Below are positions 1 to 33,366 of a DNA stretch of 64,000 nt, one piece after another. The position numbers and the translations under genes were made by a program. Below the pieces are notes generated by a model. It did no database searches. It was not told where the DNA came from and saw nothing but the letters and a program-made list of their open reading frames with translations. The first letter of the stretch is position 1. The number at the start of each line of letters is the position of its first letter. This DNA is from a virus (taxonomy: Duplodnaviria > Caudoviricetes): IMG/VR virus record IMGVR_UViG_3300005582_000006, positions 12,247 to 76,246 of that record; one strand, 5' to 3'.

Positions 1-3000
1 GCATTTAGAGTTGCTGCAAAAATAAATCATCCAGACAAGAATCCTACTGCTAAACCTAATGGCAACATGGAAAGAGTAAATGCTGCTCTTAGGACTTTAT
101 TAGATAGAAACATTCTTATAAGAGCAAGGGCTGAAGCTGGTCCAAAGACCACAGATAATACTAGACGAAATACCTCACCACCACCGCCACCAAAAAGAAA
201 TGCTCAATCAGAAGATCAAATTTTTAGGGCTGTTTTTGGCGATGCTCCAACTAAAGACGAAGCAAGAAGTCAATGGAAAGGCACAAATCCAGAGACATTT
301 ACCAAACCAAATAGATTTGATAGTTTTGAAGCAGTTAGAAATGCTAGTCAATTTAGAGAAAAAGAAGAAGCAGCTAAAACAATGAACGCTTCTTCTGCAT
401 ATAGTGACAGGCTAAGAAAAGCAAAAAGAGGATATGCTAATGGTGGAGATGTAGTTAGACAGAAATTTGCTAGTGGTAAGTTTGTTGCTAAAGATACAAA
501 AGGAAATATTGTTCGTGATAGTGTTGATGGTGCAGACGAAGTTGAAATGGCTGCAAAGATTAGGCAGATGGGATACTTTGTTATATCTCTTGAGCTTGTT
601 GCTGCCAAAAAAGCCTCACAACAAAAACTACAAGAAAGACAAGACAGAAGAGATCAAGCAAAAGAAAGAGCGAAAGAACTTAGAAGATATTGGAATATGA
701 ATGAGACAGACACAGGTGACATTAATACATCTAGACCTCCAAAAAGAGGTAACAGTCTTGCAATAGAAGAATCAGAAAGACGAGAAGAAAATGCTAAAGG
801 AATTGTTTTGTCTGGACCAAGTGGTGCTATTGCTGGAGGTATTACTGGTGCTGTTAGTGGTGCTCTTCTTGGTAATATTCCGGGGGCATTTATTGGTGGC
901 ACTTTAGGATTTGGTGCTGGAGCAGTTGGCGGTATGATGTATGACAAATCAAGAAAATCAGAAGATGAAAAAAATAAAGGTTTGGCTAGATTTTCTTATC
1001 AAGACGAACAGGGCAAAAAAGGAATTATTCCTGCTAGAGATAAAGAAGAAGCAATAAGAAGATTGTCTTTTGATCGTATTACACCAACAAATATGCGGAG
1101 AGTTGCACCAGAAAGATCTTGGGGTGAATATCTCGAACAAAAAAGAAATGATATTTTTGGTATAAAAAAAGCATCAATAGAAGAGACAAATAGGGAATCT
1201 CGTAGCCGTGAAAGAAAATTTAGTAAAAGCATAGGCAAAGGAGATGCCCCACCAATAATGGTAAGGAAACCATCTAAAAAGACCAAAGAATCTAAAAAAT
1301 ATAGTGAAGATATATACAAGCCACTTCCTGCATTAGCATTAGATCCAACTTTAGGAAAATCAGTAGCAATCACAAAAGAAATGATGGAAGAAAGAAAAAA
1401 GGCTAGGGGTTTTGCTTCTGGTGGATTAGTACCAGGAACTGGCAATTCTGACACAGTTCCAATGGACTTAGACGAAGGTTCGTTTGTAATTAAAAAGTCT
1501 TCAGTTAATAGCATAGGCATTGATAATTTAGCTAATGCTCACAAATTTGCATCTGGTGGTAAAGTTCCTGCATTACTCACGCCAGGTGAATATGTATATA
1601 GCCCTAGCGAAGCAAAGAAAATTGGTGCTAATAAACTTCATCAAATGAATAGTTTTGCAAAATTTAAAAAAGGTGGTGAAGTTGGTAATAGTATAGTTAG
1701 TGATACATTTTTAAATAGCCCAAACAACTTAAAGAAAATACTTTTAACATTAGTTGATCAAATAATGGAGTCAGATCCAGAAATATCAAAAAAAGATGCA
1801 AAAGCAGAAGCCACAAGAATTGTAAGTGAAATAAAAGTTCAAAATCAAACATCAAATCAAGCAATTGGAAATGTTGCTAGAGCAGATCAAGATATATCGG
1901 CAGAAAAATCAAATATTGGTGTTTTTAATAAAGAACTAAAGGGTTTTGGTAAAACACTATCTACTTTAGGTAAAGAAGCAACTAGTTTAGCGGAAGCACT
2001 TCAGAAGAATACAGATGCAGCAGATGCTTCATATACTGCTGAATTAGAATTAAGGGCAAAGGGTACAGCAATAGTAGCTGCTAGAGATGCAAAAGTAGCA
2101 GCAGGACAAGATTTAACTAAAGAAAATACAAGGGTTGGATCTGCACAAACAAAAGTAAATGAATTAAAAGATAAAAAGAAAGACATGGAAGAGGCTAGAC
2201 AAGCAAAAATAGATGCAGCAGATCAAAGAATTGCAGCAGCAGAACAAGCAAAAATCACAAAAGAAGCTCAACCAGTAGATTTAACTCAAGAAAATAAAAG
2301 AGTTGTTTCAGCAAAACAAAAAGTCGATGATTTAAAGCAAAAAAAGAAGGACATGCAAGAAGCGAAGCAAGCAAAAATTGATGCAGCGAGTCAAAGACTT
2401 GCAGAAGCAGAAGAAGCAAAAAGATTAAAATCTCAACAGCCAGTAAACTTAAAAAGTGAAACTGCAAAAGTTGGAAATATTACCGGAAGAATTTCTGTTC
2501 TAGAAGCAAGAAAAAAATCTAAATTAGATGCTGGTGAATCAGTTAGAGTTGTGAATGCACAAATAGCAGAAGCAAAAAGACAAAGAGATGTATTGACAAA
2601 ACAGATGGCAGATAAAACTGCTGCTGGACCTAACACAAAAAAAGAACAAGAAGAAATTGATAAAGCAAAAGAGGAATTAGCAAAAGCTAGTAAGCCATTA
2701 AAAACAAAAAACATAGACACAAAAATAATGAGAGCAGAAGATGCTCTTACGCAAGCTACTACTGCAAGAGACAACAAAGTTCCTAACACAAAAAAAGAAC
2801 AGGAAGAAATCGATAAGGCGAAAGCAGAAAAATTGGAAGCTGAAAAACCATTAAAATCAAAAGCAATAGATGCAAAAATAACAAAAGCTGAAAGTGCTTT
2901 GACTACAGCAACAAACGCAAGAGATACCAAGGCAAGAACGGCAGTAGACACATCAAAAGAAGATGCACAAATTTTAAAGTTAAATCAAGATTATCAAAAA

Positions 3001-6000
3001 CTTCTTGATGATAGAAATACAAATGCTCAAAATAGAGTGGCAATAGAAAATAGCATTACTGCTGTTGGAACTAAACAATTAAATGTTCAAAATGAAATTT
3101 TAAAGACAGAACAAAACATAAAAGATGCAGAATCAAACATACAAAAAGCCGAAACAGCAAAAGCAGCAGCAAAAGCATCAGGGGAAAAGGCCACTAGATC
3201 ATTTCAAGTAAATGCAAAGGGTGAGATTGTAAATGAAAAAGGAAGGCCAATTGGACAAACAAAGCCAATAACTACACCTGATTCAATAAAGCAAATTTCA
3301 AAACAAAGAGAAAAAGAATACGCTAAACAAAATGATGGTAAAGCCCCTAGAAAAAGCGAAAGAGAAGATATAAGAAGTGGAATAGTTAATGAATATAGAG
3401 TAGCAACAGAAAAACAACTTAGAGCAAAAGCACAAAAAGAAGGAAAACCTGTTAGCGAATTGCAAATCCAGTCTATGACTGATCAATACACTAAGCAGTT
3501 TGCTCAAGGAAAAAGAGGGGCAGTTTTTAATAAACAAGGTGAAGTAACAGGAGATAAGTCTTTAGGATCAAAATTAATTAAAGGTGGAGATTATAAAGAA
3601 AGTGGCGATTTAACATTCCAAGGTAAGGTAAAAGATTTTGGAAGTAGAGCACTTTTTGGTTCAAAACGGACTGATTTTGAAGCTGGTTCAGAAGGAGAGA
3701 GACAGTTTAAACAAGATAGAGCATCTGGTTACGCCAATAGAATAACAACTGCTGCTGTTGGTGGATCTTTACTTGCTTCTGGAATGAGAGCAGAAGCACC
3801 AGAAGTTTCTTCTCTTGCAAAAGCAAATGAACAAGGAGTAGTTGTTGAAGATAAAGCACAGCAAGAAGCTTATAGGTCCACACTTCAATTTGCTGGTGCT
3901 ATTGAAAAAGCTGGAACATATGCTGCTACTACTGCTACCGCTTTTTCGGCACTTGGGCCAGTAGGTACTCTTGTAGGCGGTGCTTTAGGTGCATTTGTTG
4001 GATTAATAAAAGGTTATGCTGATGGCACTAAAGAAGCAGAGGCACAAATAAGAGAAGTAAAGTTAGGTGCTGCACTAACAGGATTGCAAGGAACATTTGA
4101 TAAATTAAATACTGGTTTAAGAACTTTTGATGATACTATTGCCGAATCAATTGCAGCAAATCAAAAAATTATTACTGAAGCAAACGCTGGAAAAGCATTC
4201 GTTGAAGCTGGTGGAGAGAAAAGTGGTTTTGATAGATTAATATCTGGAATTACTGGTGGCGGTTTTGGTGGATTTGATGTTAAAAAATTCAACGAATTAA
4301 ATTCAAAAAGTCAAAAAGAAGCTGGTGCTGCACAAATAGTTCCACTTACGAACATTTTAAATAAACAAGCCGAACAACTTGGTTCTAGTGCAGTAAGACA
4401 GGCTGGTGGAAATGCTGGAACATTAGACTATAAAGATTTTGCAGCATCATTAGATACCAAATTAACTAGTGGCGGTGGTGGATTTAATAATGCACAAATA
4501 CAAAAAATTGCTAATGCAAGAAATGTAAGCTTTGATGATGTTAAAAAAGAAATTGTAAAAGTAATGAAAGATTCTTTTAAAGCTGCACAATTAGAAAAAA
4601 CTCAAAAAGAAGCAGTAACTGTAAATCAAAGATCTATAAATTCTATGGCATTATTATCAGAAGCAGTTGTTGCTGCTGCTAATTCGGTAGAAAGTTTCTC
4701 TAATAGGTTAAGCACAAATGAGTCATTTTTTAGTGGCGGTATTGGATCAACAAAAGTAACTGGAATTTCTAATCAGTTTGATCAAAAATCAACTCCAGAC
4801 TTTAATTCTTTTAATTCTGCCGTTTCTAAACTTTCTGATTCACTTGGAACTTATGGCAATGAATTTAAGACTCAAGGAAATGCGATTAATGCAGCTTCAC
4901 AAGCATTGCCTTCATTACTTGCTGGTGCAATAGAAGATCCTGTTGGTGGTCAAGATATAGCCGTACAAATAGCTGCTGGTTTAAGAGAAGCTTTAAGTGC
5001 TCAAGGTATTAGTGGGGCTGGAGCAGATAGAGTCGTAAGTTCTGTTGCTGGAAATGTATCTGGACAAGAATACACAAAGCTACTTGCTGAAGCTGGTGGC
5101 GATGTATCTAAAGTTGCAGAAAAACTACTTGGCAATATAAAAGACCCATTTTTAAATGCAGCTAAAGATATAAGTCAAAGATTAGAAAATGCAAGTAATC
5201 AATACATTAGTGGTTTAGAAAATTTAGCTCAAAGACAAAAACAAATTGGCGAATCGTTTAAAAACTTAGAAAGTGCAAAACTACAGAGAGATAAGTTTAC
5301 AGCAGAGACTGTTGCTACAAATGCTGGTTTGCCATCACAAGCAGGGAATTTGATTTCAGTAGATAGACAAATGCAAGGCTTTAGAACAAATCAAGAAAGA
5401 CTTACTGGAACCAAAGGAGCAGAAGCACAGGACTCCAGAGTAATTGGAGATAACTTAAAAAGAACGCAAGAAAGAATTAGGGAATTAGAACCCAAAGTAC
5501 AGAATGCTTCTGGTGCAGAAGGTGGTGGGGCTGCATTTAGAGGTGCAGCATCTGAGTTAGTTAAATTAAAATCAGAAGCTTCAAATTTGCAAGAGTCATT
5601 AAAGAATTTGGCAGATCAATCAAACAATCTTGCTATTTTGGAAGGCAAACTTGGTCAAGTAAGACAAGAAAGAGATAATGAAACTCAAAGAGGAAAAGAG
5701 TTTTTAACGGCAGATCCAAAAGAAAGACAAAAAATATTAAGAGATAGAGTTCAAGGACAAGGACTACTTAAACAAGCACAAGCTCAAGGTGGAAATGTAA
5801 GTAATTTTAGTTCTGGACAAAACAAAGCACTTTTTGCATTCTTAGATAGTTTTGGTCCAGTTGGAAAAGATATTGCAGACAACATTGTGCGTAATACTAC
5901 TGGTTTAGGGAAAAAGAAACCAGAAGAAGATATGTTAGTTGGAAAATTAGCCAAAGTATATGACGAGCAAGTAAAAGCAAATCAAGAGTTAATTGGTAAT

Positions 6001-9000
6001 CAAAGAAGTTTACAGACTGATTATTTTTCTCAGTTGACAAAACAAAATACTACATTTTATTCAAACCTAGATAAATTTATTGCTGGCATGGAAAAAAGTC
6101 AAGTTCAAGATGAAAAAAATAGAGAAGTTGCAAAGTCTGCAAAAATAAAAGATGTTCAAGAAAAAAGTGGTTTTCTTAGAGAAGCTGGAGTAACTGATGA
6201 AAATCTAAAAGATGTTAATGCAAATAAAGGAAAAATATCAGAAGTAATAAAAGCAAGAGAAGCAGCAAAAGAAGAGGAAAAAAGATCTGTAAATATTAAT
6301 GAGTCAATGAGAGAAGGTGATTTCGCACAATCTCTAGGAAGATCATTCACTAAAGATGCAAGAGAAGCAGATGCAGCAAAAGAAATTGGATCAAAAGGAG
6401 AAACATTAAATGACATACTTTCAAAAATAGGATTGACAGGAAAACAAAGCTCTCTAGTTCGTGAGCAAGCAACAATTGCTGTAACTCAAAATAAAGATTT
6501 AAACATAGAAGAAGCAATAAAAATAGCTATAAGACAAGTATCGGGTCAAACAGTTAATGATGCAGAAAAAAGAGTGAGTACAGCAGAAAAAGGTGCTGGA
6601 GCACTTGGCGTTAATATTGCCAATAAAGCACAAGAACAAGGAATAAGTGCAGAAAAGTTTGAATCTAGTCTTGCAGCAGTTACCGAATTAAATCAAGGTA
6701 TTGGGGTAAAACTTACAACGGCAGCAAGTACTGCTACAGCAAATATTGATAGATTATCTGCATCCATTAATAGTTTAGGGGCACAACAACAAGGTATTGC
6801 TCCAGTTAATGTAAATGCTAATCCTGCACAAGCAATTGGATTTGCAGTTGGTGGTCCAGCATTTTCCCCAAGAGGAACTGATACTGTTCCAGCAATGTTG
6901 ACACCAGGAGAATTTGTAGTAAATAGAAGTGCAACACAACGAAATCTCCCACTGCTTCAATCTATAAATAGTGGAAAAACATCGTATTTAGCAGATGGTG
7001 GAGAGGTATTGGGAAAAAGAATAAAAGCATCAGAAGATGTAATGAAAATATGGGATACCCCAGGATTAAAACAAGAAGAAAAAATAGCTTCAATTAGAAA
7101 CATCATAAGCAATAAATATAATTCTCTTAAAGAGTCTTCTTTAACTAATGTTCCTAATGGAATAGAAGGCGAATCAAGAAAGTCTGCTGCTTCTGCAATA
7201 TTGCAAGAGGTTATTTCATCTTTATCAATAGGTCAAATTCCAAAAAATGAAAGTGCTAAAAGGGTAATCGATAGCAATGGTGGAATTGAATCACTTCAAG
7301 ATTTTGGAAATATTTTTGGTGATTTTAAAAGAAAAGGAGATACAGAAAATTCACTAGGTTATAGAACAAAAGAAATAAATGATAATTATGAAAAAATTAA
7401 AAAAGAAATGTTAGATGAAAAGTTATTAGATCCAACAGAATCATATGAAAACTTTAAAAAAGATAATAAATATAATTATGAGTTATTATATAGCAAATAT
7501 GATCCTGCAAACATAAGGACTGCCCTTAATAGTGTGATGATAGAAGCTGGTAGAGATGCAACAGTAAAAGAAAAAGTTGTTGCTGGATTACTTGGTGCTG
7601 GTTCTGCAATTATTGCTGCTCCTATCGCTATTGGTGGCGTAGCTCTTTCTGGTGCTGGAGCTTTAGGAGCGAGTATTAGTGGGGCTTCTGTTACTGCTGC
7701 TGGAGCTACAACTTATGGACTTGGAAAACTTATAATGTCAGAGTCCGCAGAAGAAAAAAAGAGAATGGATTTATTTAAATTGGATGCAGCAATAGCAGAT
7801 CCAATAAACCAAGATAATACACATGGGTATTCTGCTGCTGTTTCAACAGGAGCAAATATTAAAAAGTTTGCAGATTTAGAAACATTGAATTCAAAAAAAG
7901 AATTTGCAGAAGGAATGAAAAGGATAAAAGAAGACTTTAATCATGTTTACAAATATGGAGTTTCTGGAAATGTTAAAACGCCAGGCTGGTGGGGAAAAAC
8001 AAATGAAGAAAAAATGAATACTGATTTATTAAAAGAAACATGGTATTACAAAGGAACTAATGGTGGTGCTATAGATGTAGCAAAAGATGGCTATACATGG
8101 CCAGGTATTCAAAATTATAGTGGTGAAAAGGTTAATACTTTTATTCAGCCCCTTATTGATAAGGCAAATGCTCCAGATCCATCAAACGCACAAAAAATAA
8201 AAAATTACTTAAAAAGAAAAAATATATCTGATAAAACATATTTAATTCCAGATGATTTAAATGATTTAAATCAATTTATTGTAAATCCAGAATATTTAAA
8301 AAGTTTAAATGCTGCTGGCACTAAAGATATAGATGCTAATATAGATGCTAAAATACCACAATATATTGCAACAATAGCAAATTTAAAAGCACAAAAGAAA
8401 GACATTGTTTCAGAAAAGAAACAAGAAAATATAGTTGCCAACATTGCAAACGAAGAAGGCACAACGCCCATAGATACGCAGATAAGAATGGCAGAGAATG
8501 AGGTTCTTGCAGCAAGAGGGAATAAAGAATTAGAATCTAAGAAAAAAGCAGAATTAGAAATATTAAAACTAAGAAGAACAAGCTATAACCAAACTGGATT
8601 AACATCTAATGAAAAGTTAAGAAATGCTTATGGTCAAAATAGACCAGAAATAGATAAGAGCTATGTTGAATCTAAAGCTTATCTTACTCAAATAAAAGAA
8701 GGAACTGGAGAGAAGTTTGTCGCTACAGATATGGGCAAAGAAGACGAGCTTTTCTTAAAGAGACAGGGCGATGCAGGAAGATTAGCACAAATAGGTTTAA
8801 GAAGAGAAGTGCAAGCTAGTGCTATACTTGGCAAAATGGTAAAGCTAAAAGGTATTTTTGCTAAAAATCAAGGCGAAGAATTAAACAAAAAAGAATTTGC
8901 TGAAATTGGTAAAGATCCAAATCAATTAATACCTTTAGGCTTAAAAGAATACAATAATTTATACAGTGGACAAAAAGGAAGTTTAGCAAAAGAAGACTTT

Positions 9001-12000
9001 GATAATCCTAAACTTATACTTCCATTCCAAAAAGAAATTGTTGGATCTTTCTTTAAACAACAAGCAAGCACAAGATCTTTAGCAATAAGTGGTAAGGGTC
9101 TTCTTGACTTTATTGATCAATATTCAAACATAAAAGACACTAAGGGTTTTGTTGAAGCAAAGGTAAAACAAGCTGGACCAGATGCTATACCTTTAGTTGT
9201 AAGGGCGATAGAAGAAGGAAAAATAAATGCGTTGAGCGTTCTTAATGCAGCAGCAGCAAATGTTGGTGGTATAAGCAGAAAGAGCTTAGAAGGTGCTATT
9301 GGAAGAAATAAAGACTTTAATCTATTAGATAAGCTCTCCGAAAAACAAGAAGGAAAAGCACAAAAAATTGTTAAACCATTCTCTGGAATTGATTTTATAG
9401 AAGGTGAAGATGGTGCTTATGCAACTATAAAGGCAGTAAGTGGAAAAGGTCAAGTTTCGATGTCTGCCAATAATACCGCATTAAGAATAGCTGCTCCTTA
9501 CTTGCCAAAATCAATTTATAAACAAGATATTCTTGCTGGAGAAGCATATAACAATGATGGATTAAAAAAATTGGCTGGTGATAGACCAACATTGGGAAGT
9601 CCTAATAGCTCTTTCACATTTCCAGCAGATGGGCCAAGTCTTTTTACTACAGAAGATTTTTTAAATGCTGTAAGTAATTCACAGGGGTACGCAACTATTT
9701 CATCAAAAGCAGTAGTTGTAGAAGAAGATGTTGAAGGTAAGAAACAAAGAAAGATTGATTATAAAAGAAATTTAGATGTTGCAAATATTGAAAATTCTAA
9801 AACTAGAGAGGCGATGAAAAATCGTTTAAAGCGTATAAATGACATAGAGGGAATTAATAAACCGAATCAACCAGAAGAAAATAAAAATGTAGTTAAAGGA
9901 GAACCCAATGAATTTCAAGCTGCAATTATAAAAGAAAAAAATGAACAGAGTGCTCTTGCAGCTAGACTACCTAGAGCAACCAAAGAGCAACAATTATTTG
10001 AAGGCCAATACGGAGAACTAAGTGTTGAAAGTCGATTAAATAGGGGTGAAATAACTAGAGAAGAAGCAGCAGCACAAATAGAACGACAAAGACAAGCTAG
10101 AAAAATGTCATCTGGTGGAATAGTAAACTATCTTTCATCTGGTGGTGTTCCTAGTCATAGTCCTAATCCTGATCCTTCGTTCTTTAAGCCTAAAGGTACA
10201 GATACAGTACCAGCTATGCTTACGCCAGGTGAGTTTGTAATAAATGCCTCTGCTACTGCTAAACATGGCGATTTATTAAGTGCTATAAATAGTGGTAAAG
10301 ATGTTGGATATTCTGCTACTGGTGGAATAATTTATTTAGAAGATGGTGGAGAAGCAAGAAAAAAAGCATTTTATGAAAAAATGAATAAGCGAAAAAATGA
10401 CGAAGAAAAATTAAGATATTTAGTTGATGATAAAGATAAAGATAAAAATACCTACATGCAAGACAGAAAAGATGATTTAGAATCTACTGCTAATAGGGCA
10501 ACTCAAACTTTTTCTCGTAGGCAGAACCAATTTATACAAGATGAAGACAAGAGCAATAATGCTGGAACAGAAATGGTTTTTAATGCTATGGGGATGACTG
10601 GACTTGCAAAAGCAGGAATATCTGCAATTTCAAAATTTGCAATGAGTCCATCACTTAACGCTGCTGGTCAGGGAGCAAAAAATATTGGGAAAAACTATTT
10701 TAAATACGAAGCACAAAATCAAGTGCAAAACACAGGTATAGATATTTTTAAGTCAAATGCGGAAAAATTACTTAGATATGCAAGCGGTGGATTAGTAAGT
10801 TATTTATATGATGGTGGATACTTAAAAAGAAGAGCAAACTTAGCTTCTTATAGTGGCAGTGAAAATGAATATGTTACAGATCAAGAAGAAGTTGGTAAAC
10901 AAAATACGGCAAATATAACCAATAGAATAGCAGCAAAGAATCAAGCTGAAAACAATGCATTTCAAATGTTTTCTAACATTAGATTTAATGACGGAACTGG
11001 TAGTCTTTTTGACAATACACAATCTGGATTTTCTACTGGATCTGGTGGTGTTTCTGCTCAACAAGCACTATCTTTTCAAGATCCAACTAAGCCTGGTGGA
11101 GAAGGCATAACATCAGCAGCAATGGGTATGATTGGAGATGTTCAATCCAGAATGAAGGGTAATAAAAATCCATATGGAAATATTTCTGTTACTGGTGCAG
11201 AATTAAACGAATTAAAATCTGCAAAAGCAAATGAACCAGAAATACAGAAGAGGTATGATGAATATAAAAAGTTTATAGAAGAACAAAAAAAACAACAAGA
11301 AGAAGAATCTGGTAGTACATATGCAAGTTTGGGGGGATTGATTTATGCTCAAGGTGGACTTTATCTTCCTCGTAATAATTATAGACCATATGTTTCAATT
11401 CCAGATAGCAGTTACACAGGTAGCGGAGGTTACTTTGGTGATAATGAATCTATTAATAATGGTGGGGGTTATTTTGGTGAAAGTGGAGATAAAATAGAAA
11501 GACAACAAAAACTTTACGAAATTCAAAAGAAAAAACAAAAAAGTCCTCGTTACCTACAAGCAGAACAATATCAACAACAACAATTTCAACTTAGAAATCA
11601 AGCATATCAATCACAACAACGAAAATCGCAAAATCCTAAACGACAACAACAGCCAGAACAATGGCAAATAAATTGGCAACAACAGCAACAAGCAAGTGGA
11701 TATAAAAATCCATATGCAGCATTGCAATCAAAACCAATGTTTCCAGAACAGAGACAACAACAATCAGAAAATTTTCAAAATCAAAGGGCATATCAAGCAA
11801 AGCAAGAAATGTATGGCGGTCCTAGTGCCCAACCAGTATTTCAAGCAAGTAACTATGCAGGAAGTTTCTTTAATCAAGTTCCACAGCAACAACAAGTAGC
11901 ACAAGACCCAAAACGAAAACAATTAAGTTTGTTTAGAATGAATCTAGGGTCATATAGTTCTGGTGGTAATGTAGATACTATTCCAGCTATGTTAACTCCT

Positions 12001-12873
12001 GGTGAGTTTGTAGTAAATAAACAAGCATCATCTAAAAATTATTCTTTATTACATGCAATCAATAGTGGCAAAGAAGTTGCTAGATTTAAAGATGGTGGTA
12101 GCGTTGGAAATATTCGTGGAAGAAAAGTAGACCCAATAGAATCTGGAATAAGTCTATTAGCTGGTAAGCTATCTGGAGTTGGAAATAAATTTATTGAGAG
12201 TGGAGATTCATTCAAGACTGGAGCAAATGCTAATAGGGAAGGATCACAAAACATATTGGCTTCTTCATCAAAGTTTAATTCTGGAGTTGGAAGTTTTGCT
12301 GATTCTGCTACTAAAATATCAAAAAGAAAGGGCTATAATTCTGGTGGTCTGGTAAACTATTTTGCAGATGGTGGATTCACACCAAGAGGCACAGACACTG
12401 TTCCCGCTATGCTGACACCAGGAGAGTTTGTGGTAAATAGACAATCAACATCTAAAAATTTAAATTTATTAAAAAATATAAATGGAAATGCTAGTTATAT
12501 GTCTAATGGTGGAGTTATGTATGCTAGAAGGGGTGCTTTTGTTGGAAATTCATCGCAAGACTCATCTCCAGCAATAGATATGACTTCAGTTACAGAATTA
12601 GCTAATGCAATAAGTACATTAGGAACTACATTTCTCAAACCTTTTGGTGAACAAGTAGATGCATTTAAAAATTATGCTGAAGCTTTACAAACACAAATCA
12701 ATAAAATACCAACAGTAGTAAGAATAGAAGTCATGGGTAGTTTAAATGCTGCTTTAAATATTGACTTTAATCCAGATGGCGTATATACAGCGGTAACACA
12801 AGCAACGCAAGAATTACAAGGGTTTATAATTGCAGAAATAAATAAACAACTTGGAAATGATATGAGAGCATAA
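1..12873 (+). CDS. Giant tape-measure-like protein (5' truncated by window edge; at least 4290 aa)
   Basis: Frame is open from base 1 (AFRVAAKINHPDKNP...) into the 4268-aa ORF. Ala/Lys/Glu-rich coiled coils, Gly-rich hydrophobic segments, six copies of the [FY]AxGG...DTVPAMLTPGEFV motif typical of tape measure C-terminal regions, followed by tail-type genes. Confidence 0.8.
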   Translation, partial: AFRVAAKINHPDKNPTAKPNGNMERVNAALRTLLDRNILIRARAEAGPKTTDNTRRNTSPPPPPKRNAQSEDQIFRAVFGDAPTKDEARSQWKGTNPETFTKPNRFDSFEAVRNASQFREKEEAAKTMNASSAYSDRLRKAKRGYANGGDVVRQKFASGKFVAKDTKGNIVRDSVDGADEVEMAAKIRQMGYFVISLELVAAKKASQQKLQERQDRRDQAKERAKELRRYWNMNETDTGDINTSRPPKRGNSLAIEESERREENAKGIVLSGPSGAIAGGITGAVSGALLGNIPGAFIGGTLGFGAGAVGGMMYDKSRKSEDEKNKGLARFSYQDEQGKKGIIPARDKEEAIRRLSFDRITPTNMRRVAPERSWGEYLEQKRNDIFGIKKASIEETNRESRSRERKFSKSIGKGDAPPIMVRKPSKKTKESKKYSEDIYKPLPALALDPTLGKSVAITKEMMEERKKARGFASGGLVPGTGNSDTVPMDLDEGSFVIKKSSVNSIGIDNLANAHKFASGGKVPALLTPGEYVYSPSEAKKIGANKLHQMNSFAKFKKGGEVGNSIVSDTFLNSPNNLKKILLTLVDQIMESDPEISKKDAKAEATRIVSEIKVQNQTSNQAIGNVARADQDISAEKSNIGVFNKELKGFGKTLSTLGKEATSLAEALQKNTDAADASYTAELELRAKGTAIVAARDAKVAAGQDLTKENTRVGSAQTKVNELKDKKKDMEEARQAKIDAADQRIAAAEQAKITKEAQPVDLTQENKRVVSAKQKVDDLKQKKKDMQEAKQAKIDAASQRLAEAEEAKRLKSQQPVNLKSETAKVGNITGRISVLEARKKSKLDAGESVRVVNAQIAEAKRQRDVLTKQMADKTAAGPNTKKEQEEIDKAKEELAKASKPLKTKNIDTKIMRAEDALTQATTARDNKVPNTKKEQEEIDKAKAEKLEAEKPLKSKAIDAKITKAESALTTATNARDTKARTAVDTSKEDAQILKLNQDYQKLLDDRNTNAQNRVAIENSITAVGTKQLNVQNEILKTEQNIKDAESNIQKAETAKAAAKASGEKATRSFQVNAKGEIVNEKGRPIGQTKPITTPDSIKQISKQREKEYAKQNDGKAPRKSEREDIRSGIVNEYRVATEKQLRAKAQKEGKPVSELQIQSMTDQYTKQFAQGKRGAVFNKQGEVTGDKSLGSKLIKGGDYKESGDLTFQGKVKDFGSRALFGSKRTDFEAGSEGERQFKQDRASGYANRITTAAVGGSLLASGMRAEAPEVSSLAKANEQGVVVEDKAQQEAYRSTLQFAGAIEKAGTYAATTATAFSALGPVGTLVGGALGAFVGLIKGYADGTKEAEAQIREVKLGAALTGLQGTFDKLNTGLRTFDDTIAESIAANQKIITEANAGKAFVEAGGEKSGFDRLISGITGGGFGGFDVKKFNELNSKSQKEAGAAQIVPLTNILNKQAEQLGSSAVRQAGGNAGTLDYKDFAASLDTKLTSGGGGFNNAQIQKIANARNVSFDDVKKEIVKVMKDSFKAAQLEKTQKEAVTVNQRSINSMALLSEAVVAAANSVESFSNRLSTNESFFSGGIGSTKVTGISNQFDQKSTPDFNSFNSAVSKLSDSLGTYGNEFKTQGNAINAASQALPSLLAGAIEDPVGGQDIAVQIAAGLREALSAQGISGAGADRVVSSVAGNVSGQEYTKLLAEAGGDVSKVAEKLLGNIKDPFLNAAKDISQRLENASNQYISGLENLAQRQKQIGESFKNLESAKLQRDKFTAETVATNAGLPSQAGNLISVDRQMQGFRTNQERLTGTKGAEAQDSRVIGDNLKRTQERIRELEPKVQNASGAEGGGAAFRGAASELVKLKSEASNLQESLKNLADQSNNLAILEGKLGQVRQERDNETQRGKEFLTADPKERQKILRDRVQGQGLLKQAQAQGGNVSNFSSGQNKALFAFLDSFGPVGKDIADNIVRNTTGLGKKKPEEDMLVGKLAKVYDEQVKANQELIGNQRSLQTDYFSQLTKQNTTFYSNLDKFIAGMEKSQVQDEKNREVAKSAKIKDVQEKSGFLREAGVTDENLKDVNANKGKISEVIKAREAAKEEEKRSVNINESMREGDFAQSLGRSFTKDAREADAAKEIGSKGETLNDILSKIGLTGKQSSLVREQATIAVTQNKDLNIEEAIKIAIRQVSGQTVNDAEKRVSTAEKGAGALGVNIANKAQEQGISAEKFESSLAAVTELNQGIGVKLTTAASTATANIDRLSASINSLGAQQQGIAPVNVNANPAQAIGFAVGGPAFSPRGTDTVPAMLTPGEFVVNRSATQRNLPLLQSINSGKTSYLADGGEVLGKRIKASEDVMKIWDTPGLKQEEKIASIRNIISNKYNSLKESSLTNVPNGIEGESRKSAASAILQEVISSLSIGQIPKNESAKRVIDSNGGIESLQDFGNIFGDFKRKGDTENSLGYRTKEINDNYEKIKKEMLDEKLLDPTESYENFKKDNKYNYELLYSKYDPANIRTALNSVMIEAGRDATVKEKVVAGLLGAGSAIIAAPIAIGGVALSGAGALGASISGASVTAAGATTYGLGKLIMSESAEEKKRMDLFKLDAAIADPINQDNTHGYSAAVSTGANIKKFADLETLNSKKEFAEGMKRIKEDFNHVYKYGVSGNVKTPGWWGKTNEEKMNTDLLKETWYYKGTNGGAIDVAKDGYTWPGIQNYSGEKVNTFIQPLIDKANAPDPSNAQKIKNYLKRKNISDKTYLIPDDLNDLNQFIVNPEYLKSLNAAGTKDIDANIDAKIPQYIATIANLKAQKKDIVSEKKQENIVANIANEEGTTPIDTQIRMAENEVLAARGNKELESKKKAELEILKLRRTSYNQTGLTSNEKLRNAYGQNRPEIDKSYVESKAYLTQIKEGTGEKFVATDMGKEDELFLKRQGDAGRLAQIGLRREVQASAILGKMVKLKGIFAKNQGEELNKKEFAEIGKDPNQLIPLGLKEYNNLYSGQKGSLAKEDFDNPKLILPFQKEIVGSFFKQQASTRSLAISGKGLLDFIDQYSNIKDTKGFVEAKVKQAGPDAIPLVVRAIEEGKINALSVLNAAAANVGGISRKSLEGAIGRNKDFNLLDKLSEKQEGKAQKIVKPFSGIDFIEGEDGAYATIKAVSGKGQVSMSANNTALRIAAPYLPKSIYKQDILAGEAYNNDGLKKLAGDRPTLGSPNSSFTFPADGPSLFTTEDFLNAVSNSQGYATISSKAVVVEEDVEGKKQRKIDYKRNLDVANIENSKTREAMKNRLKRINDIEGINKPNQPEENKNVVKGEPNEFQAAIIKEKNEQSALAARLPRATKEQQLFEGQYGELSVESRLNRGEITREEAAAQIERQRQARKMSSGGIVNYLSSGGVPSHSPNPDPSFFKPKGTDTVPAMLTPGEFVINASATAKHGDLLSAINSGKDVGYSATGGIIYLEDGGEARKKAFYEKMNKRKNDEEKLRYLVDDKDKDKNTYMQDRKDDLESTANRATQTFSRRQNQFIQDEDKSNNAGTEMVFNAMGMTGLAKAGISAISKFAMSPSLNAAGQGAKNIGKNYFKYEAQNQVQNTGIDIFKSNAEKLLRYASGGLVSYLYDGGYLKRRANLASYSGSENEYVTDQEEVGKQNTANITNRIAAKNQAENNAFQMFSNIRFNDGTGSLFDNTQSGFSTGSGGVSAQQALSFQDPTKPGGEGITSAAMGMIGDVQSRMKGNKNPYGNISVTGAELNELKSAKANEPEIQKRYDEYKKFIEEQKKQQEEESGSTYASLGGLIYAQGGLYLPRNNYRPYVSIPDSSYTGSGGYFGDNESINNGGGYFGESGDKIERQQKLYEIQKKKQKSPRYLQAEQYQQQQFQLRNQAYQSQQRKSQNPKRQQQPEQWQINWQQQQQASGYKNPYAALQSKPMFPEQRQQQSENFQNQRAYQAKQEMYGGPSAQPVFQASNYAGSFFNQVPQQQQVAQDPKRKQLSLFRMNLGSYSSGGNVDTIPAMLTPGEFVVNKQASSKNYSLLHAINSGKEVARFKDGGSVGNIRGRKVDPIESGISLLAGKLSGVGNKFIESGDSFKTGANANREGSQNILASSSKFNSGVGSFADSATKISKRKGYNSGGLVNYFADGGFTPRGTDTVPAMLTPGEFVVNRQSTSKNLNLLKNINGNASYMSNGGVMYARRGAFVGNSSQDSSPAIDMTSVTELANAISTLGTTFLKPFGEQVDAFKNYAEALQTQINKIPTVVRIEVMGSLNAALNIDFNPDGVYTAVTQATQELQGFIIAEINKQLGNDMRA
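2110..2418 (+). repeat. Tandem ~56-aa coiled-coil duplication in the giant protein
   Basis: DLTKENTRVGSAQTKVNELKDKKKDMEEARQAKIDAA vs DLTQENKRVVSAKQKVDDLKQKKKDMQEAKQAKIDAA. Confidence 0.85.
2629..2925 (+). repeat. Tandem ~51-aa coiled-coil duplication in the giant protein
   Basis: PNTKKEQEEIDKAKEELAKASKPLKTKNIDTKIMRAEDALTQATTARD vs PNTKKEQEEIDKAKAEKLEAEKPLKSKAIDAKITKAESALTTATNARD. Confidence 0.85.
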
Positions 12874-12885
12874 CAAGGTAAAATT

Positions 12886-13941
12886 ATGGCAAATTATATT
12901 GTATCTGGTGCTGGCAGTGGAGGGAACTTTAATGGCACATTTGTGTTTGCCAGCGGTTCTTTATATGAAAACAGCGTAGATTCAAATTATGTGCTGGTTT
13001 ATGACTCAGGATTATCTCAGTGGACTATTCGTCATTTTTCAAGCGTTTATTACTATAATACTGCAAGTGCAGGAAGTCCACCGCTAACAGGATGGCTAAC
13101 ATCATTAGGTTCAGCACCAGCACCAACAATAGCAATTGTTCCACCGCCAAAACTATTTGGCATAAGAAATTTATTTTTAAAATCTGCTTTTGAAAACACT
13201 GTTTCTTTATATATAAAGTCTTCTGTATTTGATGCCAATATATTGCCATTACATTTAAAGGTAAATACTCAAGAGCAAACAGACTTATATTTAAAAGCTT
13301 CTCCACAAAGTTCAATTAATTTATTCATAAAATATTGGTATGAACATCAAGACAACCAAGAACTTTACTTAAAAGCATTTTTAGAAGCATCAACTAATTT
13401 ATTTATAAAAAACATAAATTTATATACTGAATTAAATAATTCTATTGATTTGAATATTCGATCATCAACAATAGATCAAAAAGCAGACAGCGTAGAATTT
13501 TATATAAAAGCACTTTTTAAAAATAGCCTAGAATTATTTTTGATGGTAAATGATAGAGCATCAACAACAAACTTTATTCATGTATATATATCTGGACAAG
13601 TAATAAATTTAGCTTATTTTGAAAGTTTAAACCTTTATTTGAGCAATGACTACACATTTATTAATAACTCGTTAAATATTACTATAATTGGTCTTGGAAC
13701 TACATTTAATGGAATACCAAGCAATTCATCTATGAACATGTTTATACAAAGAGATGTTGAAGCAACTTGGAATTCTGTACCATTAATAGCTTATGGTGCT
13801 TCTCCTGCAATAACTAGCAGTATTGACTTTAATATATATCCAAGTGACATTTATTTTTATTCAGTTAGGTTAATAATTCCAAAAGTAAATCAACCATTCA
13901 ATGAAAATATGCAATTATACACTCATGGTTTTGAGGATTAA
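12886..13941 (+). CDS. Putative virion/tail protein with short LYLK-type beta repeats
   Basis: 351-aa ORF directly after the tape measure gene; recurring L[YF][IL]K[AS] motifs. Confidence 0.6.
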   Translation: MANYIVSGAGSGGNFNGTFVFASGSLYENSVDSNYVLVYDSGLSQWTIRHFSSVYYYNTASAGSPPLTGWLTSLGSAPAPTIAIVPPPKLFGIRNLFLKSAFENTVSLYIKSSVFDANILPLHLKVNTQEQTDLYLKASPQSSINLFIKYWYEHQDNQELYLKAFLEASTNLFIKNINLYTELNNSIDLNIRSSTIDQKADSVEFYIKALFKNSLELFLMVNDRASTTNFIHVYISGQVINLAYFESLNLYLSNDYTFINNSLNITIIGLGTTFNGIPSNSSMNMFIQRDVEATWNSVPLIAYGASPAITSSIDFNIYPSDIYFYSVRLIIPKVNQPFNENMQLYTHGFED

Positions 13942-13943
13942 AC

Positions 13944-15299
13944 ATGGCTGGAACATTATCAGATCCAATTCAAACATTTTCATTGCAAGAAAGTGTGCAG
14001 TTTTACGATAATGGAAAAGCAAAAACATATCTTTTCAATATATCTGTATCTGCAAAATTTGTTCCAAATCAATCTTTATCTATAAATGCAAAGCATTCTG
14101 CTATTATTGCAAGACAGGCAGCTATAATAACACAAATCAATGCATTTAAAGGTCAAACATATTTTGAAGTTCAATCAAGAGATGGTAATACTCCACCAAT
14201 CAAGTTTATACCTAGAATTAAAAGTCTAAATTTTAAAGAAGATTTGTGGGTTGATTTTTGTGATTATACAATTGAAATGGAAGCAGATTCTGTAACTATT
14301 GGATCGATAACAGTACCAGACAAAATTAATTCTTCAGAAATAGATGAGTCATGGTCAGTTGATTATAACGATGAGGATTTGAGATTTACAAAAGTAAATC
14401 ATAAAATTTCTTGTAAGTCTAAAGATGTTGATGGAAAAAATGGTTGGGAAACATCAAAAACAGAAGTTTTAAAAAAAATAAACGATCTTATTCCAACAGA
14501 CATAAAAGACGAAGCTGGAAATACTTATTTAAAAGCTTCACCTTCAAATAAATTAATTAATTATAGTGTAAATGTACTTGGCGGTGAATTTTCTGCCGAA
14601 ATAAATTTAACTTATCATAACAATCTATTAAAGAATTCAATTCTTCCTCAATTACCACAAGCACATCATGAACAAACAGTTACAGACAAACAATCCAATG
14701 AAACATTAAGAGATACGCTTTCTATAGAAGGAACTATAACTGGCCTATCTTCATCTTCTACATCAACTCCAAGCAATAGATATACAGAAGCATTGGCATT
14801 ATGGACAACGGTAAGGACTGCTTTAAACCTTAAATATCTTACATTAACAATAACTTCATTTTCAGAAACACATGATAAAGTAAAAGGAATAATTAATTAT
14901 AGTTATGAAATTGAAAATATAAAAAGACCAACAACAACTGGCATAAAAAACGAAACAATAACTGTAAGTTATTTTGGGCCTTTAGCTGATCCTCTTAATA
15001 CTTATGTTATACACAATACTATCTATGGAGATAAGGGGCCAGTTTTTCAAAACATTAACATGAATAAAGCAAAAACAATGTCTATTACAATAGAAAGAGT
15101 TGGAACAGAAACAAAACCAGATACATTGCAATATCAACCAACAGGAAGTATGATTGAATCTGATACTATTAATTTTACTGCACAAAATAAAAAAATATCA
15201 AGAACTACAGTATTTATATGGGCAGATGGATCAACGCCAGTTTTGCCAACCATTACTAATTTTGATTTGATAAACACAGAAATACCTAGACCATATTAG
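13944..15299 (+). CDS. Putative tail protein (paralog 1)
   Basis: 451 aa, Thr/Ser-rich and beta-strand-like; shares DE[ST]WS, [EQ]GTITG and GP[VI][FI]Q motifs with the next ORF; tail-module position. Confidence 0.6.
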   Translation: MAGTLSDPIQTFSLQESVQFYDNGKAKTYLFNISVSAKFVPNQSLSINAKHSAIIARQAAIITQINAFKGQTYFEVQSRDGNTPPIKFIPRIKSLNFKEDLWVDFCDYTIEMEADSVTIGSITVPDKINSSEIDESWSVDYNDEDLRFTKVNHKISCKSKDVDGKNGWETSKTEVLKKINDLIPTDIKDEAGNTYLKASPSNKLINYSVNVLGGEFSAEINLTYHNNLLKNSILPQLPQAHHEQTVTDKQSNETLRDTLSIEGTITGLSSSSTSTPSNRYTEALALWTTVRTALNLKYLTLTITSFSETHDKVKGIINYSYEIENIKRPTTTGIKNETITVSYFGPLADPLNTYVIHNTIYGDKGPVFQNINMNKAKTMSITIERVGTETKPDTLQYQPTGSMIESDTINFTAQNKKISRTTVFIWADGSTPVLPTITNFDLINTEIPRPY

Positions 15300-15308
15300 G
15301 AATAATTT

Positions 15309-16568
15309 ATGTCTATTACATTAAATGGAACTGCAATAAGACCAATACCATTGATAAGTATTAGTCAACAATCAGAATTTAGGGATAGCGGTAAATTAAA
15401 AACGACCACAATAACAGTAGATTTAAAAGGAAAAATTTTAGCTGTTGATCCAATAGCGGGTGAGTCAGAACCAACTGGAACTGCTGAACAAATAGATAAA
15501 GCTAAATTAGGTTTAATTATAAAGAAAATGGAAACCTTAGAAGGTTTAGTAATCCACAAGATAGATGATATTAATATAAGCACATCAATAGGTGGTCCAA
15601 ATTTATCTGGAAAATTTAAATTAAAATCTAAAAGCTTCCAGCTTGAACAATCAAGTTTAATATGTGATTACACAATATCTTTAGAACAAATAGTATTGGA
15701 CAATGAAGATCCAGATGAAACTTGGTCATTAGATCCAGCAGATGAATATGGGAGATTTGTAAAGATAAATAGGTCTAGAAGCATACAAGTAAAAAGCACT
15801 GAAATTCCAGCTAAAGATTATGAACTGGCAATGGAGAAAGTAGTTCTAACCACATCTATAGCTGATTCTGATGCTTCTACATACTTAACTTTGCCAACAG
15901 AAGATTCTTATAATAAAACAACTAGTTATTCAGTTAACACATATAAGAATACTGTTGATTGCAATGAGTCTTGGATATTATCAAAAGACCCATTTGTAAT
16001 CGAAGAAACATATACGGAAAAAGAAAGTTTTGATTCTGTATACAAATCCGCAAGCTTGCAAGGAACTATAACTGGATATGAAGGAAATGGGAAAACAAAG
16101 TATGATAATGCATCAGACAAATTAAAGGCAGTTAAAGAAGCAAGCCCTTGGGAAATAGGCAAATCATACACTATTGGAACAATAACTGGTAAAGTAAGAT
16201 CTGTTTCTGAAGGAACTAATAAAATATCTGGAACAATAAATTATTCTGTAGAAATTTCTGAGGGTATAGAAGAAACTACTGAAAGATTTAAGTCTGTAAG
16301 TTGGACAGATACGCCACCTACAGATGTAATTGTTGTAATACCAGCAGTTGGTAAAGAATCAGGTCCAATTATACAAAAACTTCCAGCCAAAAAAAATGGT
16401 GTTAAAACAGTCAATATTGAAGTATTATATAATGATGGATCTAAAGGTCCACCAGATGTTTCTTCTTATGCACCAACAGCCACTGAAATATTTGTAGAAA
16501 AAGACGATATGACATTTGATTATAGAACTAAAAAAGTTACAAGATCAGTAGTTTGGAATTATAATTAG
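15309..16568 (+). CDS. Putative tail protein (paralog 2)
   Basis: 419 aa, motif-for-motif similar to the upstream ORF. Confidence 0.6.
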   Translation: MSITLNGTAIRPIPLISISQQSEFRDSGKLKTTTITVDLKGKILAVDPIAGESEPTGTAEQIDKAKLGLIIKKMETLEGLVIHKIDDINISTSIGGPNLSGKFKLKSKSFQLEQSSLICDYTISLEQIVLDNEDPDETWSLDPADEYGRFVKINRSRSIQVKSTEIPAKDYELAMEKVVLTTSIADSDASTYLTLPTEDSYNKTTSYSVNTYKNTVDCNESWILSKDPFVIEETYTEKESFDSVYKSASLQGTITGYEGNGKTKYDNASDKLKAVKEASPWEIGKSYTIGTITGKVRSVSEGTNKISGTINYSVEISEGIEETTERFKSVSWTDTPPTDVIVVIPAVGKESGPIIQKLPAKKNGVKTVNIEVLYNDGSKGPPDVSSYAPTATEIFVEKDDMTFDYRTKKVTRSVVWNYN

Positions 16569-16576
16569 GTGAAAAA

Positions 16577-19500
16577 ATGAGCTTTGAAAGATTAAAATTT
16601 TTAGATTTAACAATAGTAGATTTTAATTCATCTATTGGATGGAATGACACAGAATCATCTGTAAACATAAAACTTGCTCCAGAAGATGGAGAAAGCATAG
16701 CACCGTATGAGTTAGGAAAAAATTATGAGTTTTCTTTAACTGAAGATTCTGTTTTTAAATTTAATGGTTTTCTAGATAGAGTTATTGAAAAACATGATAC
16801 TGGTGGAACTTTTTATGAAGTTAAATTAAATGATGGAAAAGAATTAATCAAAAATGTTGAAGTTATAACTAGTAGCTTGTATGGAACTAGCGATACAAAA
16901 GAAGACTCTCCAATAATAAATATGTTTAATGTTTTTAGGTGGTGGGAGAGTAAGGGATTTGGCAAAAGTCAAGCTAATGAAGGGGGGATGCCATACTCAA
17001 AACTTGAAGAAGGAATAAATGAACTTTCTAAAAAATATGGAATTATATCTGCTGGAGTACCATATTCAATAAAGTTAAATTTTGCAACCAGCGTACCAAA
17101 ATTTTATAGAATAGAAGGTCCGTATATAAACTTAATGGATTTAATATCTAAAATTTGTGATGATTTAGGTTTATTGTTTAAGATTACTCTAACAGGCACA
17201 GAATTTACAGTTCAAACAACAAGTTTAGGCGTAGATCCAGCCAATCAAAAAGTTCAAAATGTTATAAAAGATTTAGCAAAAGACAGGAATGTTATTTCTT
17301 GGGATGCTGGAATTGAATCTTCCAATAATATTGAATCAAATTTTATGCTTTGGGGTGGATTAAAAGAGCACAGCATAGTTTTTAACAACGATGTAGATTT
17401 AACTCAAATGAATGTTATTGTTGGAACACCAGTAAATTACCCCCAATATTTTTATAGTAATGCTGTTGGTCCAAATTCAAGAATAAAGCAATTTTGGGGA
17501 TATGATATTAATGGAACAGCATACTGGTCATCTGCTCAATACGATGTTGTAAAGTGTGCATGTCCATATTATAACTATAGATTTAATAGTTTAAGACCAT
17601 CCGTAGCGAGTCATTCTACTGTAAAGGCAAACGCTTGGGGCATACCTTTAGTTGGAATGGAATCAATATTTCCGGGTGCTACATATTATGAAATGACAAT
17701 GGATGAGTTGTTGTTGATAACTGGTGGAAATCAAGACAATTGGTCGTTGTATTTAGAAATATGGGATGATGCATTTAATAATGATAATATATATACGAGG
17801 GTTTTTCTTAGAGCACCGAGAAGAAATATCTCTATGGTTGCTAATTTTATGGCTGGTGGTGGATCTACAGAATTTACACTAAACAGAGAGTTTTCAGAAA
17901 AAGATAACGATATAGGAGTTATTCGTGGGGCACAACTTTTTACTTATTTAAAATCAGTAATAGATTCATATTACGGCAAACAATTTTTAGTAGAAGTTAA
18001 TTATAAGGGCGACCTTAATTATAATACTGTTGATGTTGGACAAAATAAACCAAAATCTAAAAGCGATGGTCTTGTAATAAAACAAGTATTGGAAAATTAT
18101 ACAAGTTCAGATAATTTAGATTTAAACATTACACAAAATCAACCTAAAAAAATATACAATATTTTACCAACTGATTCTGGATGGATAGATCCAGCAATTC
18201 TTGAAGCAAAGACAAATCCCTCTTTGCCTAGAGAAATGTTAAATGCTATGGCATTAAATCAAGATGGGAAAATGCAAAATTGGTTGGTTTTTAATTTGCC
18301 AAATTCATGGGCAACTCAATTTACATATGATAGTAGTTCTTCAGACACAATTTCTTATTCAGATAGTGGATCTCAATATTTATGGGTTAAAGCTTCAGTA
18401 AACGAACAATATATAACTATTCCAGTAGCAACAACTGGAATAATAAAAACAACAATACATTCTGAAGTAGTTGGTTTAGGAACTGTTGGAACATGGGTAA
18501 GCAATCAATATATTGGTGTAGACAAAAAAGACTCAGAACATGTATTAGTTTCAATAGGCCAATCTGTTGCTGCGTTTAATCAATTAATACACAATCAATT
18601 TGGTGTTGATGCACTCATAACATGTTACTTTGGATTGCAATATAGAAATCAAGTCCTTGGTCAATCTGAAAATTTTAAAACAGGACTTCCTGCACTATAC
18701 CCATTTCAAGCAATAATTAATTTTAAATCAACAAGAAATGATTTTTATGGTCCTTGGTATTTTGGAAATACTAATGGTGGAAAAACAAAAATAGAACAAA
18801 ACAATGATTTAGTTCCTTGGCAGTTTAACGCTTCTGGAACATTAGAGGAAGCTGCTAAAAATAGATTAAAAGATATAAATCCAGTTCCTTATTTTGAAAC
18901 TGGATCTTTAAATAAAATTGGTTTACCAGAACATAATCTTGGTGATGAAATAGTAAAAAATGGTCCAATAGTAACATCAATAAATGCATCATACGGACCA
19001 TCTGGTGTAACCACACAATATTCATTCAGAACATTTACTCCAAAATTTGGAATGGCATCAAGATATAACACAGAAAGACTTAAAAAATCTGCTATAAAAG
19101 CATATTCTGACAGAAAAAATATATTGTTTGTTTACATGGAATCAATTAAAAAATCTCAATCTTTACAGAGATCTTTTGCTGGAGCAAAAATACAAAACTT
19201 TATACTAAATTATCTTGGAAGAAGATACGATAGAAATACTCCACATCAAAATTTAATCATGGCACAAACAATTGATATTATGGCAGACAAGGGTGAAACA
19301 ATAAGAAGAAAAACTATTGGTGGATCTCATAGTAATATAGAAAGTGGCGGGGCTATTGCAATTCAGTCTGGATTATATAATAAAGGTGCTGTTTCTTATG
19401 ATGGTTTATTTTCACCCTTTAATAATTTTGGCAGTAGATCTCAGTTAAATACAAATACATCAATTCCATTCAGTGCTTTTATAAATGCTCCAGAAGGTCT

Positions 19501-20665: not shown

Positions 20666-20685
20666 TGATTATTTTAGGATAAAAA

Positions 20686-22566: not shown

Positions 22567-22606
22567 TGTTTAGCGGTGTATATAACTATATATTAGGAGA
22601 AAAATC

Positions 22607-23712: not shown

Positions 23713-23714
23713 AA

Positions 23715-24380: not shown

Positions 24381-24383
24381 TAA

Positions 24384-33365: not shown

Positions 33366-33366
33366 T

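Follow-up and report, generated by a model that had tools for sequence, protein, structure and literature searches.

The subject of this report is a stretch of 64,000 nucleotides, hereafter the window, which occupies positions 12247-76246 of the virus record IMGVR_UViG_3300005582_000006. It begins within the gene of a giant tail tape measure protein, in which a short peptide element, here called the module, is reiterated. The record is a single one of 76,246 bases with an estimated completeness of 51%, about half of the genome. Inside the window, the gene takes the form of one open reading frame (ORF) of 4,290 amino acids that is open at its 5' end.

1..12873, plus strand: tape measure gene, 3' 84% (4,290 of 5,110 codons); its start lies 2,460 nucleotides upstream of the window, at contig 9787

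On the contig the gene is complete (9787-25119, 5,110 residues), with an ATG start and GAGG upstream. A preliminary description, made from the letters of the window, had read this region as one giant ORF of more than 4,290 residues. This is confirmed, the length having been short by 820 residues. The ORF product is a tail tape measure protein, as had also been proposed, and is of the TP901 type. It matches TIGR01760 (E 9.9e-28, 97.2 bits, cut-off 28.8) and PF10145 (E 6.3e-24, 85.4 bits, cut-off 33.2); residues 87-423 and 125-337 are paired with these two core matches in that order. Ten PHROG tape-measure families match the N-terminal core at residues 17-470, and searches of the PDB sequences with the N-terminal 550 and the C-terminal 410 residues gave chance matches only. 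Because no sheath family is present in any of five related records (this one and four relatives, including complete genomes of 142 and 221 kb), the phage is considered siphovirus-like, with a non-contractile tail.

Seven copies of the module are found in the 5,110 residues, with scores of 62-94 bits against a module profile. The layout is [FY]xxGG..DTVPAxLxPGEFV..[FY]xxGG, a core between two arms, over about 60-70 residues. Six copies are inside the window, where the preliminary description had placed them, and both motif and profile bear them out. The seventh, M1, is upstream of the window at residues 477-534 of the full protein, directly after the tape-measure core. In the window, the leading [FY]xxGG arms start at nucleotides 1411, 1546, 6841, 10129, 11953 and 12334/12358, and the cores, [VI]P[AM]xL..G.., are found at window residues 486 (degenerate), 523, 2297, 3404, 3995 and 4135. 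From the end of M7 to the C terminus there are 111 residues, the remaining six copies being internal. A self-BLAST of the protein showed the diagonal only, and its internal repeats are taken from the module profile and from Tandem Repeats Finder.

433..540, plus strand: YANGG and the next segment, probably a degenerate module; an intact extra module stands at the same place in the relatives L029 and L025 (weak alignment)
1411..1566, plus strand: module M2, degenerate core VPMDLDEGSFV, second arm common with M3 (profile, 62.7 bits)
1546..1707, plus strand: module M3, core VPALLTPGEYV, in tandem with M2 (profile, 63.4 bits)
6841..7029, plus strand: module M4 (profile, 93.7 bits)
10129..10347, plus strand: module M5, with an additional YLEDGG arm (85.6 bits; PHROG 35029 match)
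11953..12120, plus strand: module M6 (88.9 bits; PHROG 13338 and 17300 match)
12334..12537, plus strand: module M7, with an additional leading YNSGG arm; positional counterpart of the single module of lambda gpH (87.0 bits; PHROG 25241, tape measure)
12538..12870, plus strand: C-terminal part of about 110 residues past the last module, expected from its position to be the end that docks in the tail tip

When 50 copies taken from eight related proteins are aligned, the consensus is xFAxGG, then a linker of eight residues, DTVPAxLxPGEFVxN, a stretch resembling a helix and AxGGxV. In this alignment, conservation of 90% or more is confined to G, G, P, L, G, V, G and G. Because the conserved positions hold only glycine, proline, leucine and valine, the module is not a self-cleaving enzyme. 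M4 and M7 are identical at 18 of 18 core residues and differ in 8 of the 18 codons. Since the codons differ under identical residues, the copies are kept by selection on the peptide rather than by recent duplication or gene conversion, and the module is thus under strong selection at the peptide level. The arms themselves are also in excess: [FY]x2-3GG occurs 23 times in the protein, as against a mean of 4.2 (standard deviation 2.0, maximum 13) in 2,000 shuffles of its residues. About half of the 23 are module arms, eight more seem to be free ones, and chance could account for about three. The dozen bare motifs listed in the preliminary description are all present, but five of them (FKKGG, YLADGG, YSATGG, FKDGG and YMSNGG) are second arms of modules and not free-standing.

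Taken alone, the module most likely has no autonomous fold, as its AlphaFold2 (AF2) model contains a short helix but has a mean predicted local distance difference test (pLDDT) value of 59 and only about 25 residues at 70-78. A prediction of three copies as a homotrimer scored 0.01 against a mark of 0.42, which speaks neither for nor against binding. A Pfam scan of the seven copies gave no match. With a profile of these seven copies only chance matches were obtained among the PDB sequences, tape measures being reached only by the 50-copy profile. Our literature search returned no paper describing either the reiterated element or a J-like segment (see below) in a tape measure. A paper on “moraphages” deals with contractile-tailed phages, and no tape measure was found there.

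The module has a counterpart in phage lambda. As the preliminary description had rightly stated, lambda gpH carries FHFATGGFTGTGGKYEPAGIVHRGEFVFTKEATSRIGVGNLYRLMRGYATGGYVG, that is FATGG..PAGIVHRGEFV..YATGG, and is cleaved toward its C terminus (PMC12617516). When compared by hhalign, the module aligns to gpH 741-765 (E 0.0013), and the 50-copy profile finds gpH 725-790 among the PDB sequences (E 7e-5). These alignments show the module to be homologous, as judged by sequence, to gpH 725-790, and the earlier proposal that the gpH element has been multiplied here holds. Since the Pfam family Tape_meas_lam_C spans gpH 627-701 only and stops at residue 701, the element is left without a curated family. 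According to PMC12617516, gpH is cut into gpH* (about residues 1-700) and gpHC of about 14 kDa, neither the site nor the protease being known, and the cleavage is placed in a glycine-rich stretch (about residues 690-710) just upstream of the module. The same paper reports that gpH* forms a periplasmic channel, so that gpHC must move aside, and that only gpHC residues 818-849, bound to gpI, are resolved, with about 690-817 unseen; PMC10721106 agrees on the modelled part. In lambda gpH and in the window protein alike, the element lies just ahead of a short C-terminal end, docked in the tip in lambda and expected to dock there in the window protein, and the hydrophobic glycine-rich stretch upstream of the gpH element recurs before M1. 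Unlike the window protein, with seven copies in 5,110 residues and a PF10145/TIGR01760 core, gpH has one copy in 853 residues, and its N-terminal core is PF06791. Cleavage is documented for lambda gpH only. In the solved tails of lambda, Douge and JBD30 the module region is unseen, and only the last 30-40 residues are ordered, inside the tip. JBD30 has a weak module match at 1011-1068, at the end of which its authors propose a cut, at residue 1066, as a prediction only.

Between the modules there are long spacers, along with coreless arms.

799..942, plus strand: uncharged Gly-zipper stretch 1 (full-protein residues 1087-1134)
2109..2422, plus strand: tandem duplication of a 168-nucleotide unit, 1.9 copies, in a coiled-coil spacer (Tandem Repeats Finder)
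2629..2924, plus strand: tandem duplication of a 153-nucleotide unit, 1.9 copies, in a coiled-coil spacer (Tandem Repeats Finder)
3910..4008, plus strand: uncharged Gly-zipper stretch 2 (full-protein residues 2124-2156)
7576..7725, plus strand: uncharged Gly-zipper stretch 3 (full-protein residues 3346-3395)
10777..10821, plus strand: free double arm YASGG..YLYDGG, coreless (motif; weak partial profile match)
11320..11361, plus strand: free double arm YASLGG..YAQGG, coreless (motif)
11488..11940, plus strand: Gln-rich low-complexity spacer, limits approximate (read from the translation)

The motifs had been described as lying at the borders of such blocks. All three kinds of block (Gly-zipper, coiled-coil duplication, Gln-rich) do exist, but modules do not regularly mark their limits. 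Recognisable families are scarce throughout. Pfam gave one sub-threshold match on the 4,290-residue window part, and NCBIfam nothing outside the tape-measure core. PHROGs gave none on residues 901-4000 and five matches on 3901-5110, all of them on M5-M7. An Atlas look-up of residues 3397-4190 reached a best score of 0.84, below the useful range, and provided sub-threshold leads only. The PilC-like motifs of the preliminary description did not stand up, no type II secretion F family being found in the Pfam and NCBIfam scans of residues 1-1000 and 901-2000; in relatives, an intact module stands in weak alignment with the segment so named. The modules are better preserved than their surroundings: in six of seven pairwise alignments, identity inside and outside them is 95/80, 91/72, 77/32, 75/33, 90/65 and 84/56%. 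What similarity distant relatives retain is mostly in the N-terminal core, the C terminus and the surroundings of the modules. All of this points toward spacers that behave as filler, with the modules as constrained elements in a fast-evolving ruler rather than as linkers between effector domains. A recurring unit of hydrophobic stretch plus module, as in lambda, was considered and rejected: in the top 150 relatives described below, a module follows within 60 residues for 3% of uncharged stretches and for 9% of random positions.

The sole candidate domain among the spacers, and a weak one, is a J-like segment cut by the start of the window.

1..108, plus strand: C-terminal part of the J-like segment (full-protein residues 804-856), with HPD at window residues 10-12

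The J-domain of the preliminary description survives as a segment with this tripeptide, but the PF00226 (DnaJ) match on residues 804-856 is below threshold (E 2.4e-5, 24.8 bits, cut-off 27.8). Thirteen of the 16 weak matches of the segment to PDB sequences are J-domain proteins (best E 0.012). AF2 places helices on either side of the HPD, but with a mean pLDDT of only 56. Four of the eight full-length proteins have the segment, with HPD in L001 (the window protein), L025 and L029 and HSD in L028, and it recurs in three further database proteins. L028 is the closest relative of the window protein, yet has HSD in place of HPD. In L025 and L029 the segment is nearly identical, though the flanks are only 60-65% identical to the window protein.

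When the viral contigs were scanned with the N-terminal 500 residues, 18 loci were found, 11 of them with frames still open past 3,000 residues. Eight proteins are full-length, at 5,110, 4,941, 5,617, 4,908, 4,694, 5,093, 3,976 and 1,700 residues. In the same order they have 7, 7, 8, 7, 6, 7, 7 and 1 modules above 20 bits, and none of the eight genes is interrupted in its frame. In L012 and L013, apparent premature stops past the first module would have suggested a split gene. They are frameshifts instead, after which the frame continues at 98-100% identity to L026. The stops, at L012:2997 and L013:3979, fall at runs of lysine codons and are probably assembly errors. The order of the modules is kept, with one after the core, then a tandem pair, then three or four more, and their spacing varies, the first module and the tandem pair being 228 to 1,699 residues apart.

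Searched against 1.84 billion representative proteins, the 50-copy profile gives 30,296 matches at E<=1e-3, 8,438 at E<=1e-10 and 1,445 at E<=1e-30. The figures for length, spacing and architecture that follow are for the best 150 of the 30,296. These proteins have 2,164-7,872 residues and 4-11 matched stretches, and length rises with module number (r=0.75; median 747 residues per module). The median start of the first module is residue 511 (10-90%: 447-603), the last one ends a median of 132 residues before the C terminus (97-202), and 134 of the 150 have the same N-terminal core. On these sequence matches, the window protein is one member of a large uncultured class and not singular.

Exchange of segments between relatives is visible. 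Compared with its closest relative, the window protein has a single replaced segment (residues 532-771 vs 532-647), beginning just after the first module. Compared with L029, the diverged stretch at residues 1025-1776 begins just after the degenerate module, which is intact in L029 and L025. L029 itself (5,617 residues) is a recombinant, with residues 1-775 92% identical to L024 and the part from residue 2303 onward 71% identical to L001; its last 20 residues are identical to those of the window protein. Of 36 ends of high-identity segments, 72% lie within 40 residues of a module, as against 17±6% at random, but this count is dominated by one boundary, that after the first module, recounted in many non-independent pairs. 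It is not relied on here, and shows only that the core and the first module form a conserved block.

Cultured phages with internal modules suggest that the whole chain would serve as the ruler. Like the window protein, Douge gp16 (1,699 residues) has more than one module, both internal, at 963-1034 and 1411-1460 by the 50-copy profile. It is trimeric in the tube, and the tail length fits the full protein (PDB 8ZDO/8ZDQ): the published account gives a tube of 269.6 nm with 64 rings, or 0.159 nm per residue of full protein. Unlike the window protein, it has just two copies, and only residues 1658-1699 are modelled, none of them in a module. Nodularia phage vB_NpeS-2AV2 is also a siphophage with a large genome (139 kb) and a very long tape measure (3,404 residues). 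Its tandem module pair at residues 1000-1115 resembles M2-M3, and its tail measures 795 nm (PMC6293099). It differs in that only the tandem pair and a trailing arm are detected, and there is no detectable similarity outside the modules. Its gene (L030, 9058-19272) gives 0.234 nm per residue, far above the alpha-helical rise of 0.15 and unexplained. The longest measured tail, nearly 1 µm, is that of Thermus phage P74-26. The tape measure of the related P23-45 is comparable in length to the window protein (5,002 residues); unlike in the latter, no module is detected, and a metallopeptidase domain is annotated in its record. At 0.15-0.234 nm per residue, the 5,110 residues of the window protein predict a tail of about 0.77-1.2 µm.

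The explanation we favor, with some reserve, is that of a single full-length ruler for a tail of about 0.8-1.2 µm, furnished with a reiterated, non-catalytic docking element. From the comparisons above, we infer the full-length use, the docking role and the identity of any partner. The tail tube would polymerise around the entire chain, which would act as its ruler: 0.15-0.16 nm per residue predicts a tail of about 0.8 µm, and the Nodularia ratio one of up to about 1.2 µm. Like other tape measures, the chain would be ejected before the DNA. The gene would have lengthened by tandem duplication and by the insertion or replacement of fast-evolving spacers (coiled coil, hydrophobic Gly-zipper, low complexity). 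The module would be a linear docking element that binds one common partner, with two [FY]xxGG hinges flanking a strand-turn-strand and a short helix. The first copy, after the core, and the last, about 110 residues from the C terminus, hold fixed positions. The last copy and the C-terminal tail would correspond to lambda gpHC, seating in the tail tip and perhaps being cut off there; as in lambda, the chain might be cleaved once close to its last module. The internal copies may be repeated anchors along the chain, contacting for example the tube lumen or an assembly chaperone, so that the chains stay extended and in register. Because phages that bear the module differ in tip architecture, either a general partner (a chaperone, the tube lumen or the chains themselves) or a role after ejection is suggested.

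Several points weigh against this explanation. The invisibility of the module in the solved tails that were checked fits disorder as well as docking. In a seventh comparison, of the N-terminal region, the modules are less conserved than the rest (62% vs 67%). The full-length use of the ruler is extrapolated from unrelated cultured phages, and residue-to-length ratios are loose, since the Nodularia value exceeds the alpha-helical rise. A very long ruler can also do without the module, because the P23-45 tape measure has none. Finally, gpH is cut just upstream of the lambda module, which leaves room for a processing role of the element.

Such a role is at the heart of the effector-delivery polyprotein of the preliminary description, in which each module or [FY]xxGG arm is a cleavage signal and the precursor yields a ruler plus ejected effector fragments, one of them with the J-like segment. 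The position of the lambda cut, in the glycine-rich stretch just before gpH 725-790, agrees with it, as do the predicted JBD30 cut at the end of its weak module match, the GG pairs as the most conserved module positions, and the left edges of two replaced segments in close relatives, which directly follow a module or a module remnant. It is nevertheless quite unlikely. The module has no invariant nucleophile or acid, and scans with Pfam, NCBIfam and PHROG detected no peptidase domain in the tape measure. No Prok-JAB was found in the five related records, other peptidase families and most of the neighboring ORFs not having been searched. Internal sites would sit in the tube lumen, the spacers have no recognisable or conserved domains, and no relative has its gene split at a module. 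Douge and Nodularia 2AV2 have internal modules, yet their tails require the whole protein. The effector-delivery claim is unsupported and in part contradicted; the fast-evolving spacers, whose only recognisable domain is the weak J-like segment, the tandem duplications, the lack of a catalytic residue, the unbroken frames and these two tails all speak against it. A bolder form of the idea makes the module the recognition signal of the gpH to gpH* processing. Every copy would be cut, and a precursor of 5,000-7,900 residues would load the tail with fragments. In some members, one of these would have the J-like domain, through which it could engage DnaK of the host at entry; we regard this as a long shot.

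A role after ejection seems unlikely too. Here the modules would contact the envelope (peptidoglycan, membrane, or a periplasmic or inner-membrane host factor) and help to form a trans-envelope conduit. The periplasmic channel of lambda gpH*, with gpHC moving out of the way, provides a precedent, the window protein has three long uncharged Gly-zipper stretches, and the module is disordered or unseen in virions. Because the module occurs across the differing tips of lambda, Douge and JBD30, a tip-specific partner is unlikely. Against contact with the envelope, the Pfam scan of the copies and the PDB sequence search showed no likeness of the module to known wall- or membrane-binding families, the modules are not associated with hydrophobic stretches (the 3% versus 9% given above), and the hosts span mycobacteria, E. 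coli and cyanobacteria, so that a common host partner is hard to name. The modules might also be functionless scars, left by repeated fusion or recombination between tape measure genes. The genes are indeed mosaic, as L029 shows with its L024-like start and L001-like remainder, and segment ends cluster near modules, mostly at the one boundary recounted. This is very improbable, however, in view of modules that are the best-conserved parts in six of seven comparisons, of synonymous sites scrambled between identical peptides, and of first and last copies at fixed positions in the top 150 relatives.

An element of about 60 residues thus recurs in lambda gpH, in the tape measures of mycobacteriophages and in tens of thousands from metagenomes, with no curated family and no structure. 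It adjoins the unexplained gpH cleavage, and its sevenfold reiteration under strong selection shows that it has a function. Tape measures that bear it have as many as 11 copies and as many as 7,872 residues. The longest characterised tape measure, that of P23-45, is equalled or exceeded both by the window protein and by relatives of up to this size, so that tails of some 1 µm or longer are to be expected among uncultured siphophages. The attractive reading as an effector polyprotein is corrected here as unsupported.

The tape measure gene is followed by further co-oriented genes.

12886..23221, plus strand: six ORFs of 351, 451, 419, 1362, 626 and 204 residues, presumed from position only to be tail-tip or fibre genes

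None of the six has a significant Pfam match (two sub-threshold ones fall on the 626-residue ORF only) or a PHROG match. Directly before the tape measure gene, two ORFs overlap in different frames (contig 8818-9690 and 9494-9784), resembling a chaperone pair with a programmed frameshift. They match no family. A 348-residue upstream ORF was considered as a tube protein of the P23-45 type, which has the same length, and was rejected since there is no similarity (E 0.16).

The rest of the window holds replication genes (a split DNA polymerase III alpha, DnaB, primase, a RecA-like protein and a PD-(D/E)XK nuclease) and several glycosyltransferases. On the contig, itself about half of a genome, genes of the GT1 and GT2 families number at least four, at window 32226-34866 and 59318-60385 (minus strand) and at contig 2221-4020 (plus strand). 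A protein of 673 residues (window 46037-48058, minus strand) has a RecA domain only in the C-terminal 230 residues, the N-terminal 380 or so being unassigned. Two separate ORFs at window 35270-39724 (minus strand) code for DNA polymerase III alpha, with PHP and NTPase parts at 37802-39724 and the finger, HhH and OB parts at 35270-36895. Between these halves are two small ORFs (36900-37538 and 37528-37809), so that either a split gene or an inserted mobile element is possible.

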